Assembly (NCBI GenBank): GCA_003241645.1
Contig: QFOX01000001.1
Coordinates: 54,475 to 118,474 of the forward strand
Origin: Azospirillum brasilense
GTDB lineage: Bacteria; Pseudomonadota; Alphaproteobacteria; Rickettsiales; UBA3002
Direction: 5' to 3'
Length of the DNA stretch: 64,000 nt
Each line of letters begins with the position of its first letter. The stretch's first letter is position 1. A model generated the notes under the pieces. It saw only the letters and a program-made list of their open reading frames with translations, was not told the DNA's origin and searched no databases. This document shows positions 5,968 to 57,690 of this stretch, piece by piece. A program made the position numbers and the translations under genes.

Positions 5968-7440
5968 CTAATCCACCATGAAGCCCGAGGGGCCTTCGAC
6001 GCTGGGGTTATTGCCACGCGTGCCGCTCATGGCACCGAAGAAGATGCTCTCCATGAAGCTCGCGGGTTTGAAATCATCGGTCGGAAGCTTCACGTCGCTG
6101 CCTTTGAGCGGATCCACGAGGTACGGGGTGACCGCGATGACCAGTTCGGTCTCGTTGCGTTGGAACGAGGTGGAGCGGAACAGTGCCGAGAGGACGGGAA
6201 TTTCACCCACGCCCGGCAGCTCGTCGATCTGGCTGATCATGTTGTCGCGGATGAGGCCGGCGATCATGAAGCTTTCGCCGGGGGCCAGTTCCACCGTGGT
6301 GGAGGCGCGGCGGGTGACGATGGACGGCGCCGTAAAGCCATCCGACGTTTCGATCACGCGCTCGTTGCTGATCTCGGACACTTCCGGGTTCACCTGAATG
6401 CGCAGGCGGTTCTCGCTGAGCACGTACGGGGTGAATTTCAGCGCCACACCGAAGGGTTTGTATTCGATGGTGGTGGTGCCAAGCTGCTGGGGTACCGGAA
6501 TCGGGAATTCACCGCCCGCGAGGAACTGGGCTTCTTCGCCGGAAAGCGCCACAAGGTTCGGCTCGGCAAGCACTTTCAGGATACCGTCACGCTCCAGCGC
6601 GTCCACCGCGGCGGCAAGGTCAAAGCCGGCAAGTTCACCGGTAACGCGGCTGATGCCGAACGCATCCGAGCTTTCGGAGAAGGAGAACTGGCCGGGGGCA
6701 AAGGTCGGCACGTCGCCGGTCACGTTCCCGAAGCGACCCGCGCCGGTGCCCAGCTGGAAGCCGCTGGTGCCACCGTTGAAGGCGGTCAGGTTCACGCCGA
6801 GATTCTTCAGCGCGCTGCGCTGGATCTCACCGATACGGATGCGCAGCATGACCTGCTGGCCCGCGCTGATCTTCATCAGGTTGATGATGGGCGATACTTC
6901 GCCCGCGGTAACGTCATTGCCTTCTACGAATTTCTTGCGACTGCTCGCCTGCTCGCCAACCAGCTTACCACGTACGAATTCTTCCGCGATCTCAATGGCA
7001 GTTGCGGCGGATTCGGCGCTGGAGATCGTGCCGGTCAGGGCCATACGGGTGTTGATCATGCTCACGCCGATGCGTTCATTGGGCAGGTATTCACGCAGTG
7101 CACGGCGAACGGCCGGCAGGTCGTAGGTCACGGAAACATCCATCGAGCGGATGAGTTTATGGTCGGCATCGAACACGCGCAGGGTCGTCTGGCCCACATT
7201 CTTGCCAATGACCGATACTTTACGCTTCCCGTGCACGAACACGTCGGCCACGTCGGGGTCGGTAATGATGACCTCGCTCATATCGGACGAGGTGGTCACC
7301 AGTTCGGAGCGGTTGATCGGCACGTAGAAGGCCGAAGAAGCAGCGAAGCTCGGCGCGGCGACGAGGCATGCCATGCTCAGCAGGGCGGCGCGGGCGAAAG
7401 GTTTCACGGTCGAAAACAACATGGTGGGGCTCATCGTCAT
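5968..7440 (-). CDS. cpaC: Tad pilus secretin CpaC/RcpA, locus 1
   Basis: 490 aa with a signal peptide. The secretin core reads LKVLAEPNLVALSGEEAQFLAGGEFPIPV...IAGLIRD...PGVGEIPVLSALFRS...ETELVIAVTPYLV. Confidence 0.9.
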   Translation of the reverse strand: MTMSPTMLFSTVKPFARAALLSMACLVAAPSFAASSAFYVPINRSELVTTSSDMSEVIITDPDVADVFVHGKRKVSVIGKNVGQTTLRVFDADHKLIRSMDVSVTYDLPAVRRALREYLPNERIGVSMINTRMALTGTISSAESAATAIEIAEEFVRGKLVGEQASSRKKFVEGNDVTAGEVSPIINLMKISAGQQVMLRIRIGEIQRSALKNLGVNLTAFNGGTSGFQLGTGAGRFGNVTGDVPTFAPGQFSFSESSDAFGISRVTGELAGFDLAAAVDALERDGILKVLAEPNLVALSGEEAQFLAGGEFPIPVPQQLGTTTIEYKPFGVALKFTPYVLSENRLRIQVNPEVSEISNERVIETSDGFTAPSIVTRRASTTVELAPGESFMIAGLIRDNMISQIDELPGVGEIPVLSALFRSTSFQRNETELVIAVTPYLVDPLKGSDVKLPTDDFKPASFMESIFFGAMSGTRGNNPSVEGPSGFMVD

Positions 7441-12737: not shown

Positions 12738-13470
12738 CGCGACGCGCGACTACAACGCCGAACAGCAGGACAATGCGCGGCTCTACCATTATGGCTTCGA
12801 CGTGGACGTGATGCACCCGTTCATGCTGCGCAGCTTCGCGCCGTTCTTCCGGCCCGGCAATTGCCTCGAGCTGGGCTGCCACAAAGGCCAGTTCACGCAG
12901 CGCCTGCGCACGCATTTTGCGCCTGAGCACATCACCTGCGTGGAGGCTTCGTCCGACGCGTTGGCGGAAGCCAAACGCGCACATCCCGAAGTCACGTTCC
13001 ACCACAGCACGTTCGAGCAGGTGACGCTACCCACGCGCTACGACAACATCGTGATGACGCATGTACTCGAACATCTGTCGGACCCCGTTTCGGTGCTGCA
13101 GCGCGTGCGCAACGAATGGCTGGCCGACGATGGCTATTTCTTCCTCGTCTGCCCGAATGCGAACGCGCCGTCGCGGCAGATCGCGGTGAAAATGGGGCTG
13201 ATTTCGCACAACGCTGCCGTTACCCCGGCCGAAGCCGAGCATGGCCATTACGTCACCTACTCGCTGGATACGCTGGAGCGCGACGTGCGCGCCGCCGGCC
13301 TGCAGGTGGTGCAGCGCGGCGGTATCTTCTTCAAGGCACTGGCCAATTTCCAGTGGGACCGCCTGCTGCAGACCGACATCATCTCGAAAGAATACCTCGA
13401 AGGCTGCTACCAGCTTGGCCAGATCTACCCGGATCTGTGCTCAAGTATTTTTCTGCTTTGCAGAAAATAG
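12730..13470 (+). CDS. Class I SAM-dependent methyltransferase
   Basis: I use the ATG at 12730 (MTNATRDYNAEQQ...). Motif I-like CLELGCHKGQFT, then IVMTHVLEHLSDP and GYFFLVCPN. The track ORF start at 12172 lies out of frame inside the previous gene. 8-nt overlap with the upstream gene. Confidence 0.8.
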   Translation: MTNATRDYNAEQQDNARLYHYGFDVDVMHPFMLRSFAPFFRPGNCLELGCHKGQFTQRLRTHFAPEHITCVEASSDALAEAKRAHPEVTFHHSTFEQVTLPTRYDNIVMTHVLEHLSDPVSVLQRVRNEWLADDGYFFLVCPNANAPSRQIAVKMGLISHNAAVTPAEAEHGHYVTYSLDTLERDVRAAGLQVVQRGGIFFKALANFQWDRLLQTDIISKEYLEGCYQLGQIYPDLCSSIFLLCRK

Positions 13471-13493
13471 AGTGAGTGACGCGTTGCCGCGTT

Positions 13494-13594
13494 GAAGGGG
13501 GGCGGTGCCACCCCCTTACGCTCGTTGCACTCGCTATCCCCCCTCGCGCGGCGGCTCGCCCTTCGGGCTACGCACCGACTGCATGAACGCTGAG
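13494..13594 (+). repeat. Family-A GC-rich two-hairpin repeat, half element, intergenic copy
   Basis: GAAGGGGGGcggtgccaCCCCCTTA ... CGGCTCgcccttcgggcTACGCAccgacTGCATgaacgctgag. Same architecture as the copies at 32992, 33450, 51621 and 57546. Confidence 0.8.
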
Positions 13595-13607
13595 TATGCG
13601 TCCAAGT

Positions 13608-13637
13608 CTGTCACCCCGTCGTATGACGGGGTCCATC
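13608..13637. repeat. Family-B small palindrome (GTCAyCCCG ... CGGGrTCCA)
   Basis: ctGTCACCCCGtcgtatgaCGGGGTCCAtc. Related units occur at 30212-30300 and 61401-61445. Confidence 0.65.
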
Positions 13638-13798
13638 TTTGGTTCATGTTAGGTGGATGCCGTCATGAAGACAGCATGACGTTACAAGGAATGCATGGTG
13701 TTCGCCTACGCACCCATCCACCGGCCACAAAACTTCGCTTTTGCTTCGGCGCGCGCTGGCGTATATGCATGGCCAACGGATCATCACGAGAGTGCCTT

Positions 13799-32480: not shown

Positions 32481-32654
32481 ACCATTCCTCGTGAACGCGC
32501 GCTGCGCGACGGCCCGGCACATGCCGGAAAAGCAGGGAAATTTGCCGTTGGGTAGTCCCGTTTATTGCATTGCGCAACAGGAACATGGCTTTTTCAATGT
32601 TTTCAGACCATTACATTGCTGGAGTGTGGCCCCCATTCGCGCTATGAGGGGCGC

Positions 32655-34718
32655 ATGCAGCACGCAACCGCCCATGTTCCGCATCCGCAGATCACCGTCG
32701 ATGCCGACGGCACCGCGCGCTCGCTGGCGTTCGACGATGTGTATTTCTCGGCGCGTGGCGGCGTGGCGGAAACCGAGCATGTATTCCTTGCCGGAAACGG
32801 CTTGCCCGAGCGTTGGCAGGGCTGTGGGCGTTTCACCATCGGTGAGTTGGGCTTTGGCACGGGCCTGAATTTTTTGGTGGCAGCGGATGCGTTCCTGCGC
32901 ACCAACCCCACCGGCACGCTGCATTTCCTGTCGGTCGAGAAATACCCGCTGACGCCTGCGCAATTGCGCGAGGCGTACGCTGTTCTATCTCAAGGGGGGC
33001 TTGCCCCCCCTTCGCCTGCTGCGCAGGCTACCCCTGCCGCTTCGCGGCTCGCGCCACTCGACGGCGCTACGCAGGCAGATACGAACCTTGTTACGCTGGC
33101 TGAAGCGCTATGTGCCGCCTATCCGCTGCGCTTGCCGGGCTGGCACCGGGTGAAGCTGGGCCGTGTGCAGCTGACGCTTGGCTTCGGCGATGTGGCCGAA
33201 CTGCTGCCGCAAATGGATGCGCGCGTGGATGCATGGTTCCTCGATGGGTTCGCCCCCGCGAAGAACGACGCGATGTGGAGCGCCGCCGTGCTTTCCGAGC
33301 TGGCGCGCCTGAGCGCGCCGGGCGCGCGCTTCGCCACGTTCACGGCGGCCGGTGCGGTGAAACGTGGCCTGCAGGAAGTGGGTTTCGATGTGCAGAAAAC
33401 CCGCGGTTTCGCGTATAAGCGCGACATGCTGGTGGGGAGATATATTTCCGAAGGGGGGCTTGCCCCCCCTTCGCCTGCTGCGCAGGCTACCCCCGCCGCC
33501 AGCGGCTCGCGCCACTTCGGCGCTACGCATCGACTGCATCAGCGCTGCGAGGATACTGTGCGAGGGCAGCAGCCCGAGCCAGCCATGAGCCAGCGGAGCT
33601 GCGCGGAGGCATCGCACAGCACGTGCGATCTGCCGGAGCAAGCGAAAGAAATCCTCATCATCGGCGCGGGCATTGCGGGGGCGACCACGGCGCGCGCGCT
33701 GGCCGAGCGTGGCTACCGCGTGCAGCTGTTCGAGGCGGCCACCATCGCCAGCGGTGCTTCGGGCAATCCGGCGGCGGTGCTCTACCCGCAACTGACCAAA
33801 TATTATGGGCCCGCCACCGCGTGGCATTTGCAGGCGTACAGCTTTACATTGCAGCAACTGGCGCATTGGAAGCAGGCGGGGCTGGCGTTCGCGTGCGAAC
33901 AGCCGGGCATGCTGAAGCTGGCGACCGACGCGGCGGATGCGGAAAAACTGCGCGGCTTGCAACACAGCCTGCAGCTGGACCCGGCCATTGCCCGCTGGGT
34001 GGAAGCGGATGAAGCCAGCGCCATGCTGGGCCATGCCGTGCCACATGGTGGTTATTATTTTGCGCAGGGCACGTGGCTGAACCCCGCGCAGCTATGCAAC
34101 GCCTTGCTGCAGCATGCGCACATTACAGTGAGGGAAAACTGCGCCGTGCAGCATATCGCGCGGGGCGATGCGGGGTGGCAGCTGACGCTGGCAGATGGCA
34201 CCACGCACCATGCCGCGCAGCTGGTGGTGGCGAATGCGAACGATGCGCGGCGCCTGCTGGACAGCGATGCGCTGGATATTCGCCCCTCTGCCGGGCAGGT
34301 GAGCCTGCTGGAGCCGACGGCGCTTGCACCTTCGTTGCCGCATATCCTCTGCCATAAAGGCTATGCGATCCATACGCCGCAAGCGCTGCTGCTGGGCGCG
34401 ACCTATGACCGCGCGGATCTCTCGTGCGCGGTGACGGAAGCGAACCATGCGCACAATATCAATGAGTTACAGCGTGCATTGCCGCAGGCAGTGCTGCGTG
34501 GGCAGGCCACGGGCGGCCGCACGTCGCTGCGCGCGACCACGCCGCACCGCCTGCCGTATGTGGGGCAAGTGCAGCCGGGGCTGTATGTGAATGTGGGGCA
34601 TGGCTCGCGCGGCATGATCTCCGCGCCGCTTGCGGCCGAGATCCTCGCCAGCGAGATGGCGGGCGAACCGCTGCCGATCAGCCGTGCGCTGCGTGCGGCG
34701 CTTCAGCCGCCACGCTGA
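32655..34718 (+). CDS. mnmC: Bifunctional tRNA mnm5s2U34 methyltransferase / FAD-dependent cmnm5s2U34 oxidoreductase, carrying two in-frame repeat insertions
   Basis: I use the ATG at 32655. The MnmD part has GELGFGTGLNF and VDAWFLDGFAPAKNDAMW. The DAO part has ILIIGAGIAGATTARAL and GASGNPAAVLYP. The peptide GGLAPPSPAAQATPAAS is duplicated. Confidence 0.88.
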   Translation: MQHATAHVPHPQITVDADGTARSLAFDDVYFSARGGVAETEHVFLAGNGLPERWQGCGRFTIGELGFGTGLNFLVAADAFLRTNPTGTLHFLSVEKYPLTPAQLREAYAVLSQGGLAPPSPAAQATPAASRLAPLDGATQADTNLVTLAEALCAAYPLRLPGWHRVKLGRVQLTLGFGDVAELLPQMDARVDAWFLDGFAPAKNDAMWSAAVLSELARLSAPGARFATFTAAGAVKRGLQEVGFDVQKTRGFAYKRDMLVGRYISEGGLAPPSPAAQATPAASGSRHFGATHRLHQRCEDTVRGQQPEPAMSQRSCAEASHSTCDLPEQAKEILIIGAGIAGATTARALAERGYRVQLFEAATIASGASGNPAAVLYPQLTKYYGPATAWHLQAYSFTLQQLAHWKQAGLAFACEQPGMLKLATDAADAEKLRGLQHSLQLDPAIARWVEADEASAMLGHAVPHGGYYFAQGTWLNPAQLCNALLQHAHITVRENCAVQHIARGDAGWQLTLADGTTHHAAQLVVANANDARRLLDSDALDIRPSAGQVSLLEPTALAPSLPHILCHKGYAIHTPQALLLGATYDRADLSCAVTEANHAHNINELQRALPQAVLRGQATGGRTSLRATTPHRLPYVGQVQPGLYVNVGHGSRGMISAPLAAEILASEMAGEPLPISRALRAALQPPR
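32992..33073 (+). repeat. Family-A repeat, in-frame copy 1 inside mnmC
   Basis: AAGGGGGGcttgCCCCCCCTTCgcctgctgcgcaggctacccctgccgcttcgCGGCTCgcgccactcgacggcgcTACGCA. Translated as GGLAPPSPAAQATPAASRLAPLDGATQ. Confidence 0.85.
33450..33551 (+). repeat. Family-A repeat, in-frame copy 2 inside mnmC (interdomain linker)
   Basis: The first 43 nt (from 33451) are identical to copy 1. It then reads ...CGGCTCgcgccacttcggcgcTACGCAtcgacTGCATcagcgctgcgag. Translated as EGGLAPPSPAAQATPAASGSRHFGATHRLHQRCE. Confidence 0.85.
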
Positions 34719-51055: not shown

Positions 51056-52036
51056 ATGCACCCAAAACCCCGCCAGCGCCTCGCCATCGACCATGCCCTG
51101 CAACCGGGCGCTGCCCTGCAGCTGGAGGGCAACCACGCGCATTACCTTGGGCATGTGCTACGTGCCCAGCCCGGCGAGCATGTGGCGCTGTTCAACCGCA
51201 CCGACGGCGAATGGCTGGCGCAGATCACCGAGGTGAAGAAAAAATCCATTGCCCTGCAACTGGTGGCGCAGACCAAGGCGGCGCAGGTCGGGGTGGATAT
51301 GTGGGTCGCGTTCGCGCCCATCAAGGGCGGCAGGCTGGAGACGATCATCGAGAAAGCGACCGAACTGGGCGCGGCGCAACTGCACCCGGTGCTGACGCAG
51401 CGCACCATCGTGGACAAGGTGAATGCGGAACGCGCCGAATCCATCGCCCGTGAAGCCGCCGAGCAATGCGAACGCACCGACTGGCCGCTGATCCACGCGC
51501 CGCAGAAACTGGCGCAATGGCTGGGCAGCTTCCCCACCGACCGCGTGCTGATCTATGGCGATGAAACGGGGGGCGGCGTAGCCCTTCAAGATGTATTACG
51601 TGGGCACCTGCGGTGCCTTGAAGGGGCTGCGTCCCCTTCGCCCGCCAATGGCGGGCTGACCCCTCCCGCAAGCGGCTCGGCCTTACGGCCTACGCAAGAA
51701 ATGCATCAACCCCGAGAGGATACGGCGCGTAGCGCGGAAGCGCGAGCCGCCGCGCGAGGGGGGTCAGCGACCGAAGGAAGCGAAGGGGGTGGGCTTGCGC
51801 CCCCCTTCATGCCCGAAGGGCAACCTATAAAATGGGCCATTCTCGCGGGGCCGGAAGGCGGCTTCACGCCGGACGAACTGGCCATGCTGCGCCATTGCAA
51901 ACAGGCGCGCGGCGTTTCTTTGGGGCCGCGCATCTTGCGGGCAGACACCGCCATCATTACATTGGCGGCCATGACATTGGCGGCGTGGGGTGATTGGCAC
52001 CGTGCACCACGCTTTGAAGGGGGCATTCCATCATGA
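51056..52036 (+). CDS. rsmE: 16S rRNA (uracil1498-N3)-methyltransferase RsmE carrying an in-frame repeat insertion
   Basis: 326 aa. The N-terminal PUA-like part has HAHYLGHVLRAQPGEHVALFN and the SPOUT part has FAPIKGGRLETIIEKATELGA and WAILAGPEGGFTPDE. About 65-80 extra residues lie between DETGGG and WAILAGPEGG. Confidence 0.85.
   Translation: MHPKPRQRLAIDHALQPGAALQLEGNHAHYLGHVLRAQPGEHVALFNRTDGEWLAQITEVKKKSIALQLVAQTKAAQVGVDMWVAFAPIKGGRLETIIEKATELGAAQLHPVLTQRTIVDKVNAERAESIAREAAEQCERTDWPLIHAPQKLAQWLGSFPTDRVLIYGDETGGGVALQDVLRGHLRCLEGAASPSPANGGLTPPASGSALRPTQEMHQPREDTARSAEARAAARGGSATEGSEGGGLAPPFMPEGQPIKWAILAGPEGGFTPDELAMLRHCKQARGVSLGPRILRADTAIITLAAMTLAAWGDWHRAPRFEGGIPS
51621..51809. repeat. Family-A repeat, complete two-armed palindromic copy, in frame inside rsmE
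   Basis: Left arm is GAAGGGGctgcgtCCCCTTC...CGGCTCggccttacggccTACGC. The centre contains ATGCAT. Right arm is GCGTAgcgcggaagcgcGAGCCG...GAAGGGGGtgggcttgcgCCCCCCTTC. Confidence 0.85.
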
Positions 52037-55737: not shown

Positions 55738-57522
<1,785 letters not shown>

Positions 57523-57545
57523 TTCGCGATTGGCCTGCGGCACGA

Positions 57546-57631
57546 GAAGGGATCTGCTATCCCTTCGTCGCCTCCGGCTCCTTACCCTTTCCGTTCACTT
57601 CGTTCACGGCTCGCGCCATAAAGCGCTACGC
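57546..57631 (+). repeat. Family-A repeat, half element, intergenic copy
   Basis: GAAGGGAtctgctaTCCCTTCgtcgcctccggctccttaccctttccgttcacttcgttcaCGGCTCgcgccataaagcgcTACGC. Confidence 0.75.
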
Positions 57632-57690
57632 GTTATGTAAAACCTGTGTATAGGGCGTAGGTTTAGTTGCAGTGACCCCCCAGATTTAGT

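Follow-up and report, generated by a model that had tools for sequence, protein, structure and literature searches.

An in-frame block in rsmE of an uncultured alphaproteobacterium as a probable tail-to-tail pair of dispersed hairpin-repeat units

The window analysed here, a 64,000-nt stretch of contig QFOX01000001.1 (assembly GCA_003241645.1), contains an rsmE gene that carries an extra in-frame block within its coding sequence. Our analysis indicates that this block is very probably a tail-to-tail heterodimer of units from a dispersed non-coding hairpin-repeat family that looks mobile, and that it is tolerated by the enzyme as a permissive loop. The record identical to the rsmE protein (hypothetical protein DI582_00505) belongs to an NCBI metagenome-assembled genome (MAG) labelled 'Azospirillum brasilense', while several RsmE relatives carry the label 'Rickettsiales bacterium'; therefore, the species label is not literal and the source is an uncultured alphaproteobacterium. 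The features of the rsmE locus are as follows.

51056-52036, plus strand: rsmE coding sequence, intact, 326 aa (open reading frame (ORF) list, Pfam, orthologs and alignment to structure 4J3C)
51603-51617, plus strand: accessory hairpin GGCACC-TGC-GGTGCC, directly upstream of the left unit and part of the inserted block
51619-51696, plus strand: left unit, from TGAAGGGG to CTACGCA, four hairpins (nhmmer E = 2.1e-9; unit alignment)
51697-51725, plus strand: spacer between two GTAG-type tails, containing ATGCAT (sequence; alignment of post-unit sequences)
51726-51809, minus strand: right unit, inverted (nhmmer E = 3.7e-9, minus strand)
51811-51821, plus strand: small accessory hairpin GCCC-GAA-GGGC adjoining the right unit (compared with the rsmE sites of relatives)

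An extra block in an otherwise conserved RsmE

The rsmE product is predicted to be the 16S rRNA U1498 N3-methyltransferase, made of a PUA and a SPOUT domain. Pfam detected PF20260 (PUA_4) at the N-terminus and PF04452 (Methyltrans_RNA, SPOUT), the HMMER match to the latter being split into two stretches. A Pfam scan of the 326-aa protein returned no domain match inside the insert, and an intein or an intron was rejected on this ground. Solved RsmE structures were matched with E values down to 7e-39. The closest, 4J3C from Sinorhizobium meliloti, aligns with query residues 6-173 and 259-314, and the gap between these segments holds 85 query residues versus 14 in the structure. The excess of about 68 residues lies between YGDETG and WAILAGPEGG, and the ETG-to-W distance is 87 aa in the window versus 19 aa in an empty-site ortholog (locus L233). 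RsmE orthologs range from 251 to 326 aa, those free of the insert measuring 251-257 aa, and all of their length variation beyond the N-terminus falls within one connection, from YGDE(T/S)G to W-A-I-L-(A/T/I/V)-GPEGGF. The original prediction of a 326-aa ORF with a single excess block thus agrees with the ORF list, the 4J3C alignment and the insert-free orthologs; close orthologs either lack the block, as L233 does, or have the site differently filled.

The remainder of the enzyme is well preserved. GPEGGF and LGPRILRADTA are invariant in the RsmE alignment, and every SPOUT motif and family-invariant residue is kept in the window's protein. The gene is under purifying selection, because divergence of its flanks from the ortholog in locus L001 concentrates at third codon positions (14, 9 and 69 mismatches at positions 1, 2 and 3, each out of 251). 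An AlphaFold2 model built with the ortholog alignment shows a confident core in which residues 189-253 have a predicted local distance difference test (pLDDT) score below 50 and no secondary structure. These residues correspond exactly to nucleotides 51620-51814, that is, to both repeat units, and are placed between helix 177-188 and strand 259-264, directly before the GPEGGF loop of the SPOUT knot. In this model the insert appears to be a disordered surface loop of about 65 residues at a structurally permissive position. We infer that the insert is translated in vivo and that RsmE is still active.

At the nucleotide level, the block consists of a plus unit, a spacer of about 29-31 nt and a minus unit, with the GTAG-type ends facing inward. 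Both the term tail-to-tail dimer for such a geometry and the analogy with repetitive extragenic palindromes (REP) are taken from PMC3733652. The left unit is read in unit frame +0 as EGAASPSPANGGLTPPASGSALRPTQ and the right one in unit frame -2 as ARSAEARAAARGGSATEGSEGGGLAPPF, which would yield peptides such as GGLTPPASGSALRPTQ and GGSATEGSEGGGLAPPF. The sequence motifs on which a palindrome had been proposed are all present (GAAGGGGctgcgtCCCCTTC at 51620-51640, CGGCTCggccttacggccTACGC ending at 51695, the central ATGCAT, GCGTAgcgcggaagcgcGAGCCG from 51727 and GAAGGGGGtgggcttgcgCCCCCCTTC ending at 51808). The proposed span of 51621-51809 locates the block but starts one base late, the first hairpin beginning at 51620, and the inserted block is somewhat larger, with the accessory hairpins at 51603-51617 and 51811-51821. 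The former hairpin (protein motif GHLRC) is shared with L001 and with protein P0005 and absent from L003, L231, L233 and L235, while the latter has covarying counterparts in L231 (GCGCC-GAA-GGCG) and L235 (GGCGC-GCCA-GCGCC).

The palindrome itself is real but imperfect. The arms lie in opposite orientations in the family profile and are complementary over 24 nt at 79% and 15 nt at 87%, and the predicted RNA fold of the block is significantly stable (z = -4.05; none of 200 shuffles was as stable). The arms have nevertheless diverged, being identical at 54 of 84 aligned positions, and fall into different subfamilies: the left arm clusters with units such as those from loci L159, L194 and L212 (hairpin 1 loop CTGCGT; CCCCTCCCGC), and the right arm is nearest to the intergenic copy at 13493-13577 (79.5% identical).

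The repeat unit and its family

Combined blastn and nhmmer searches identified six units in the window, the two arms of the rsmE block and the four listed below along with a second type of repeat, module X. The intergenic copies proposed at 13494-13594 and 57546-57631 and the two proposed mnmC copies were all recovered as members of the family, with the following limits.

13493-13574, plus strand: unit, apparently intergenic, no ORF longer than 61 aa spanning it; closest relative of the right arm of the rsmE block
32990-33073, plus strand: in-frame mnmC unit lying upstream of the methyltransferase domain
33449-33529, plus strand: in-frame mnmC unit, located where a linker joins the Methyltransf_30 and DAO domains
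33560-33640, plus strand: module X, a second interspersed repeat family of about 85 nt (blastn; rsmE alignment)
57543-57632, plus strand: unit, intergenic, not spanned by any ORF above 61 aa and lying about 20 nt downstream of a histidine-kinase gene

Beyond the window, the copy search brought the collection to 45 distinct full-length units, intergenic and intragenic, in roughly 0.6 Mb of related DNA. This set derives from a cleaned pattern scan of metagenome contigs and from loci fetched through RsmE orthologs. The metagenome scan gave 108 loci, but about 48 of those numbered L123-L228 represented a chance match in a conserved DNA-methylase gene and were removed. That stretch, coding for the motif DPFAGGG...LEAQRLG...YASD, is unrelated to the repeat and had contaminated an iterated nhmmer profile. 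A scan of genome contigs with the pattern AAGGGGN{4,14}CCCCTTN{20,45}CGGCTCG proved too loose and returned mostly chance hairpins, locus L082 being the sole true member among the matches listed.

The units align from (T)GAAGGGG or TGAAGGGG to GCTACGC(A/G) while their flanks are unrelated, which defines sharp ends. They measure about 66-90 nt, typically about 80 nt, and the family has a G+C content of about 70% in genomes of 55-63% G+C. A typical unit (e.g., L175:646-729) is made of four consecutive GC-rich hairpins. Compared with dinucleotide shuffles, the units fold with a mean z of -1.97, and 23 of 45 have z below -2. Inspection of individual stems revealed that their sequences vary between copies yet stay complementary. 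Hairpin 1 occurs as GGGGAC/GTCCCC, GGGGCC/GGCCCC, GGGGAT/ATCCCC or GGAGGG/CCCTCC; hairpin 2 as GCCTGC/GCAGGC, GCGGC/GCCGC, GCAAC/GTTGC, GCGCC/GGCGC, GCACGGC/GCCGTGC or a reduced GC-TTC-GC; and hairpin 4 as CGCC/GGCG, CGC/GCG, GCC/GGC, CCC/GGG or GGG/CCC. The 3' end bears a tag: 44 of the 45 units end with the stem followed by CTACGC(A/G), that is, GCGTAG beside the hairpin 4 stem on the other strand, the remaining one having TTACGC. Partial copies with only the 3' half of the unit also exist. No Rfam family was found for the unit, whether at gathering scores or at E values up to 10.

The original prediction regarded the rsmE palindrome as a complete two-armed element. As a canonical form this does not stand, for inverted pairing of two full units was observed only in rsmE, once among about 45 units, and single units are the rule. 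The mobile or repeated entity thus appears to be the single arm and not the pair, because units align end to end with unrelated flanks. Single units have no terminal inverted repeats: their start (TGAAGGGG) and their end (GCTACGCA) are not mutual inverted repeats.

These results bear on whether the insert could simply be a native, lineage-specific disordered linker of RsmE whose likeness to other loci is compositional. An insert is indeed present at this loop in many orthologs, of 264-326 aa. However, the family profile matches intergenic DNA and unrelated genes on both strands with E values of 1e-9 to 1e-15, units in different genes share up to 96% nucleotide identity, three reading frames are in use and orthologs with an empty site exist. 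A native protein linker is refuted by these observations, and we consider its probability negligible.

Host genes, intergenic sites and reading frames

Units were found in frame in at least 12 host proteins of related uncultured alphaproteobacteria. Hosts confirmed by Pfam are MnmC (two units in the window and two, in opposite orientation, in L226), CarB (L082), PriA (L134, with two units and a solitary module X), LeuS (L159), MutY (L175), UvrC (L145), inositol monophosphatase (L163), HemF (L127) and a SBP_bac_5 protein (L196). When 1.84 billion representative proteins were searched with a profile, four matched; two or three of these were of low complexity, and one, KdsB, is a real new host in which two unit peptides stand in tandem. 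The highest identity between copies lying in different genes of different organisms is 95.6%, for the mnmC unit at 32990-33073 and the unit in mutY of L175. In MnmC, family repeats occupy the Methyltransf_30-DAO linker both in the window (gene at 32565-34718) and in L226 (8936-11071), in opposite orientations; this inter-domain linker is an apparent second hotspot or permissive site. In CarB of L082 (3762-7301, minus strand; 'MAG: Rickettsiales bacterium P.bin.123'), we also noted other odd extra segments, such as GGGSWVVSGEDKSRPTTHHTPHTAKMPASFEP and RGQENSLNPESRIPNPPSYETIM, which may derive from further repeat families.

Both orientations and three reading frames of the unit are used in proteins, namely forward +0 (EGGLTPPSPAAQATPAASGSRHFGAT), reverse -0 (RVASHGEPLAEGVSGEAAKG..PPS) and reverse -2 (VRSAEAARAAKREGSAS...). 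Forward intragenic units (rsmE and mnmC of the window, L082, L134, L175, P0124 and P0005) are all read in frame +0 (EGGL...), with frames +1 and +2 open in 24 of 44 and 32 of 44 units, respectively, whereas reverse-oriented units use both of their open frames. Since most units leave five of the six frames open, the one always closed being that which reads the TAG of the GTAG tag, the absence of stops from the rsmE block, correctly pointed out beforehand, is unremarkable and needs no special explanation. Because it is shared by intergenic sites and unrelated proteins, in both orientations and three frames, the unit is best regarded, from these comparisons, as a nucleic-acid element and not as a protein module. 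Searching with a 65-aa peptide gave a single match, P0121 (DI582_02635, 80 aa), annotated as a hypothetical protein on another contig of the same MAG. It consists essentially of a unit and module X read through, so that the repeats have probably given rise to a spurious gene call here.

Outside genes, the unit at 13493 is flanked by short, AT-richer hairpins, TTTCTGC-TT-GCAGAAA within 13440-13492 and GTCACCCCGTC-GTAT-GACGGGGTC within 13600-13640. These may be terminators or further small repeats.

Turnover of the rsmE loop

Comparison of six relatives revealed six states of the rsmE loop.

Window: plus unit and minus unit
L001 and L002 (two independent assemblies): the window's plus unit and module X
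L003: minus unit alone
L231: minus unit, its distance from the conserved TGG codon being 23-24 nt
L235: minus unit, equally far from that codon but read in another frame than in L231
L233: empty

Three of these architectures coexist within one tight clade, because the window, L001 and L003 share a 97% identical GshA neighbour; GshA identity is 72-77% to and among L231, L233 and L235. From this distribution, the rsmE site is a turnover hotspot.

These assemblies also speak to the concern that the block is a chimeric join made through a repeat during metagenome assembly. The source is a MAG, repeats can mislead short-read assemblers, and the exact plus/minus pairing occurs in one assembly only. 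Yet 191 nt of repeat leave the frame unbroken, and orthologs have colinear flanks. Moreover, the left unit and its accessory hairpin occur at the same place in L001 (JGI), L002 (ENA) and P0005, and the inverted unit in L003, L231 and L235. With the frame kept, the flanks colinear and units at the same place in independent assemblies, we rejected an assembly artefact, which is highly improbable.

The minus units of the window and L003 are identical at 48 of 78 positions while the coding flanks are 83-94% identical. Conversely, the plus units of the window and L001 are identical at 81 of 84 positions, and third positions have changed in 1 of 28 codons compared with 69 of 251 in the flanks (Fisher p = 0.005). 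Because the minus units diverge more, and the plus unit less, than the rsmE flanks, the units do not evolve in step with their host gene; the alignments call for units being replaced or inserted anew, for gene conversion or for constraint at the nucleotide level.

One explanation for such constraint would be that units are kept for the host as DNA or RNA structures, for instance to stabilise mRNA, to impose a translational pause before the SPOUT knot or to serve as a nucleoid or topoisomerase binding site. The conservation of the left unit beyond synonymous sites, the compensatory stem changes and the persistence of family consensus features in the inverted unit of rsmE orthologs with GshA identities of about 72-77% are all consistent with this view, and REPs have been proposed as RNA elements (PMC3733652). 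However, L233 and many orthologs of 251-257 aa have nothing at the site, fillings differ despite 97% identical GshA, the frame of the inverted unit differs between orthologs, and host genes and positions are heterogeneous. Recognition by a transposase or gene conversion would explain the conservation equally well. We therefore consider a host function unlikely.

Mobility is also suggested at 57.5 kb, where the intergenic unit at 57543 has no counterpart at the orthologous L001 site; with flanks about 92% identical, the two sites differ by a gap of 118 nt (57505-57650 versus L001:8700-8740). An imperfect target duplication, about 11-15 nt long, borders the 118-nt insertion (GCRCGSGTSATGTAR; GCACGGGTGATGTAG ... 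GCGTTATGTAA). It repeats the last codons and the stop of the histidine-kinase gene, and the upstream copy keeps ARVM* with other codons. No target-site duplication is evident at rsmE when the window is compared with L001, L003, L231, L233 and L235.

Module X and the composite arrangement

Module X, which accompanies the plus unit in L001, encodes the peptide RGQQPEPAMSxRSCAEASHSTCDLPE and is often found past the CTACGC end of a unit, from which about 30 nt of linker separate it. The spacer of the rsmE block resembles this linker (blastn, 51702-51782 versus 33535-33614). Other copies of X lie at L001:2985-3075, L134:4529-4629 and 5988-6069, L196:11776-11859 and L212:7445-7496, as well as in L127 and L188, and X is also found alone, in frame inside PriA. 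The composite of unit, linker and X recurs in mnmC of the window, in rsmE of L001 and in L134 with 79-88% identity over about 190-205 nt, the first two being 88% identical. X may be an old, degenerate partner arm, given that a weak alignment links its first part to an inverted unit (70% over 84 nt, E = 3.6e-4).

This arrangement suggests another possible origin, in which the two-armed block of about 190 nt would be a complete MITE, or miniature inverted-repeat transposable element, bearing long terminal inverted repeats and mobilised by a DDE transposase, and single units would be its decayed halves. The recurrence of the composite at three places, the weak alignment of the start of X with an inverted unit, the length of the unit and the imperfect duplication at 57.5 kb all fit such an element, and REP singletons in Pseudomonas are mostly remnants of dimers (PMC3733652). 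On the other hand, a full inverted partner exists for only 1 of about 45 full units. Single units are sharp and conserved at both ends amid unrelated flanks, and these ends are not mutual inverted repeats. Furthermore, the rsmE arms belong to different subfamilies sharing 54 of 84 positions, and no insertion sequence (IS) with matching ends was seen in the DNA searched. A MITE origin thus seems improbable.

Proposed origin

The view that we favour is that of a tail-to-tail pair of mobile-looking repeat units in a permissive loop. Units have landed, or been copied, at many places in the genome, and copies that came to lie in surface loops or inter-domain linkers survive provided that their length is a multiple of three and a frame is open. 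In RsmE, such a permissive place lies just before the knot that binds S-adenosylmethionine, the core of the enzyme staying under purifying selection. Mobilisation could be achieved in trans by a REP-associated tyrosine transposase (RAYT; HUH/Y1) acting on single-stranded hairpin DNA. We propose this type of enzyme because the unit pairs a GTAG with a stem end and the E. coli RAYT cuts single-stranded REP DNA at a GTAG motif (PMC3733652). Gene conversion among copies probably adds to the turnover.

Several points weigh against this origin. A tblastn search with an E. coli RayT sequence, a weak test, gave no match to a RAYT or transposase at E < 0.8 in about 0.56 Mb of related loci and the window. 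The duplication of 11-15 nt at 57.5 kb, found at one site, is of a kind not produced by IS200/IS605-type enzymes. At two to three times the length of a classical REP (20-40 nt) and with three extra hairpins, the unit may not be a REP in the strict sense. The left unit of rsmE also appears too conserved for a purely neutral passenger, which calls for nucleotide-level constraint, gene conversion or recent re-insertion. Finally, translation of the insert and activity of the enzyme are both inferred.

We also considered that intragenic units might be maintained at, or re-targeted to, specific protein loops, either by a site-preferring enzyme that recognises hairpins or by selection on nucleic-acid structure. 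This idea arises because the loop is occupied across GshA identities of 72-77%, its filling has been exchanged, its frame has switched and units outconserve synonymous sites. Although we judge it unlikely, it would, if true, describe a GC-rich system of several hairpins by which one repeat family reshapes the loops of housekeeping proteins in a systematic way.

Under our preferred reading, the rsmE locus offers a well-resolved natural experiment in which selfish hairpin repeats enter essential genes and are tolerated, a single RsmE loop being found in four different states among close relatives (unit with inverted unit, unit with module X, inverted unit alone, or empty). The proposal that a selfish palindromic repeat had colonised a coding sequence without killing it is borne out by the dispersed copies of the family and by an rsmE gene that is intact and under purifying selection. 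At least a dozen housekeeping proteins carry such units, on which constraint seems to act at the level of nucleotides and not of the protein. Such inserts also have consequences for annotation, as they inflate protein lengths, split domain matches and create spurious hypothetical proteins such as P0121.

Comparison with known systems

The closest known systems are the GTAG-tagged REPs and their BIME and REPIN arrangements. Di Nocera, De Gregorio and Rocco (2013, BMC Genomics 14:522; PMC3733652) reported that REPs tagged with GTAG or CGTC lie within coding sequences in Opitutus terrae, Thauera, Xanthomonas, Stenotrophomonas, Sphingopyxis, Erythrobacter and others. Consequently, the statement in the original prediction that no GC-rich counterpart was known has to be abandoned. 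These intragenic REPs occur as single units or dimers that add 20-30 aa, and up to 82 aa, to their hosts. They are enriched in repair, tRNA-synthetase and RNA-modification genes, with many in replication genes, and sometimes occupy the same site in orthologs (PMC3733652). The present family, compared by its features with the 24 published GTAG families, shares with them a GC-rich hairpin with an unpaired GTAG beside the stem at one end, subfamilies with compensatory stem changes, singletons and tail-to-tail dimers (REP spacers being 20-100 bp), sites just downstream of genes and in-frame copies in DNA-repair, tRNA-synthetase and RNA-modification genes of GC-rich bacteria. It differs from them in several respects. 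The unit is 66-90 nt long with four hairpins, whereas a REP is a single palindrome of 20-40 nt. Singletons dominate, the full dimer occurring once in about 45 units, in rsmE and with long-range pairing of its arms, and no associated RAYT gene was seen in the 0.56 Mb of loci and the window with the E. coli query. Published GTAG families are mainly from Gammaproteobacteria (PMC3733652), whereas the hosts here are uncultured Alphaproteobacteria.

Bacterial MITEs, such as the Coxiella QMITE, intragenic ERIC and the Anabaena MITEs (PMC10969869, PMC5896051), are likewise small, structured, non-autonomous repeats that are sometimes read through in host proteins. Unlike our single units, which lack terminal inverted repeats and show one ambiguous duplication, they are defined by terminal inverted repeats of 15-30 bp matching those of an IS and by target-site duplications.

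Rickettsia is the classical case of in-frame palindromic repeats (PMC10969869). The analogy with them drawn in the original prediction is apt, as both families have in-frame and non-coding copies. Rickettsia palindromic elements (RPE), reportedly described by Ogata et al. in 2000, are repeats of about 100-150 nt present in frame in many unrelated housekeeping genes and in intergenic DNA; as here, they occupy predicted permissive surface positions and include tRNA and rRNA modification enzymes among their hosts. However, RPEs reside in AT-rich obligate intracellular Rickettsia and some are CGTC-tagged, whereas the present family has about 70% G+C and is GTAG-tagged. Homology to RPE-1 to RPE-10 is implausible because base composition and host lineage differ.

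Taken together, these comparisons define a new family that works like intragenic REPs and RPEs, because the tag, the dimer geometry, the covariation within subfamilies and the kinds of host genes are shared with known families while length, solitariness and clade differ. No new kind of system is thus revealed, and the most interesting aspects are the turnover hotspot and the nucleotide-level conservation of intragenic units. With this family, the phenomenon known from RPEs and intragenic REPs reaches an uncultured clade of Alphaproteobacteria and a longer unit, made of four hairpins.

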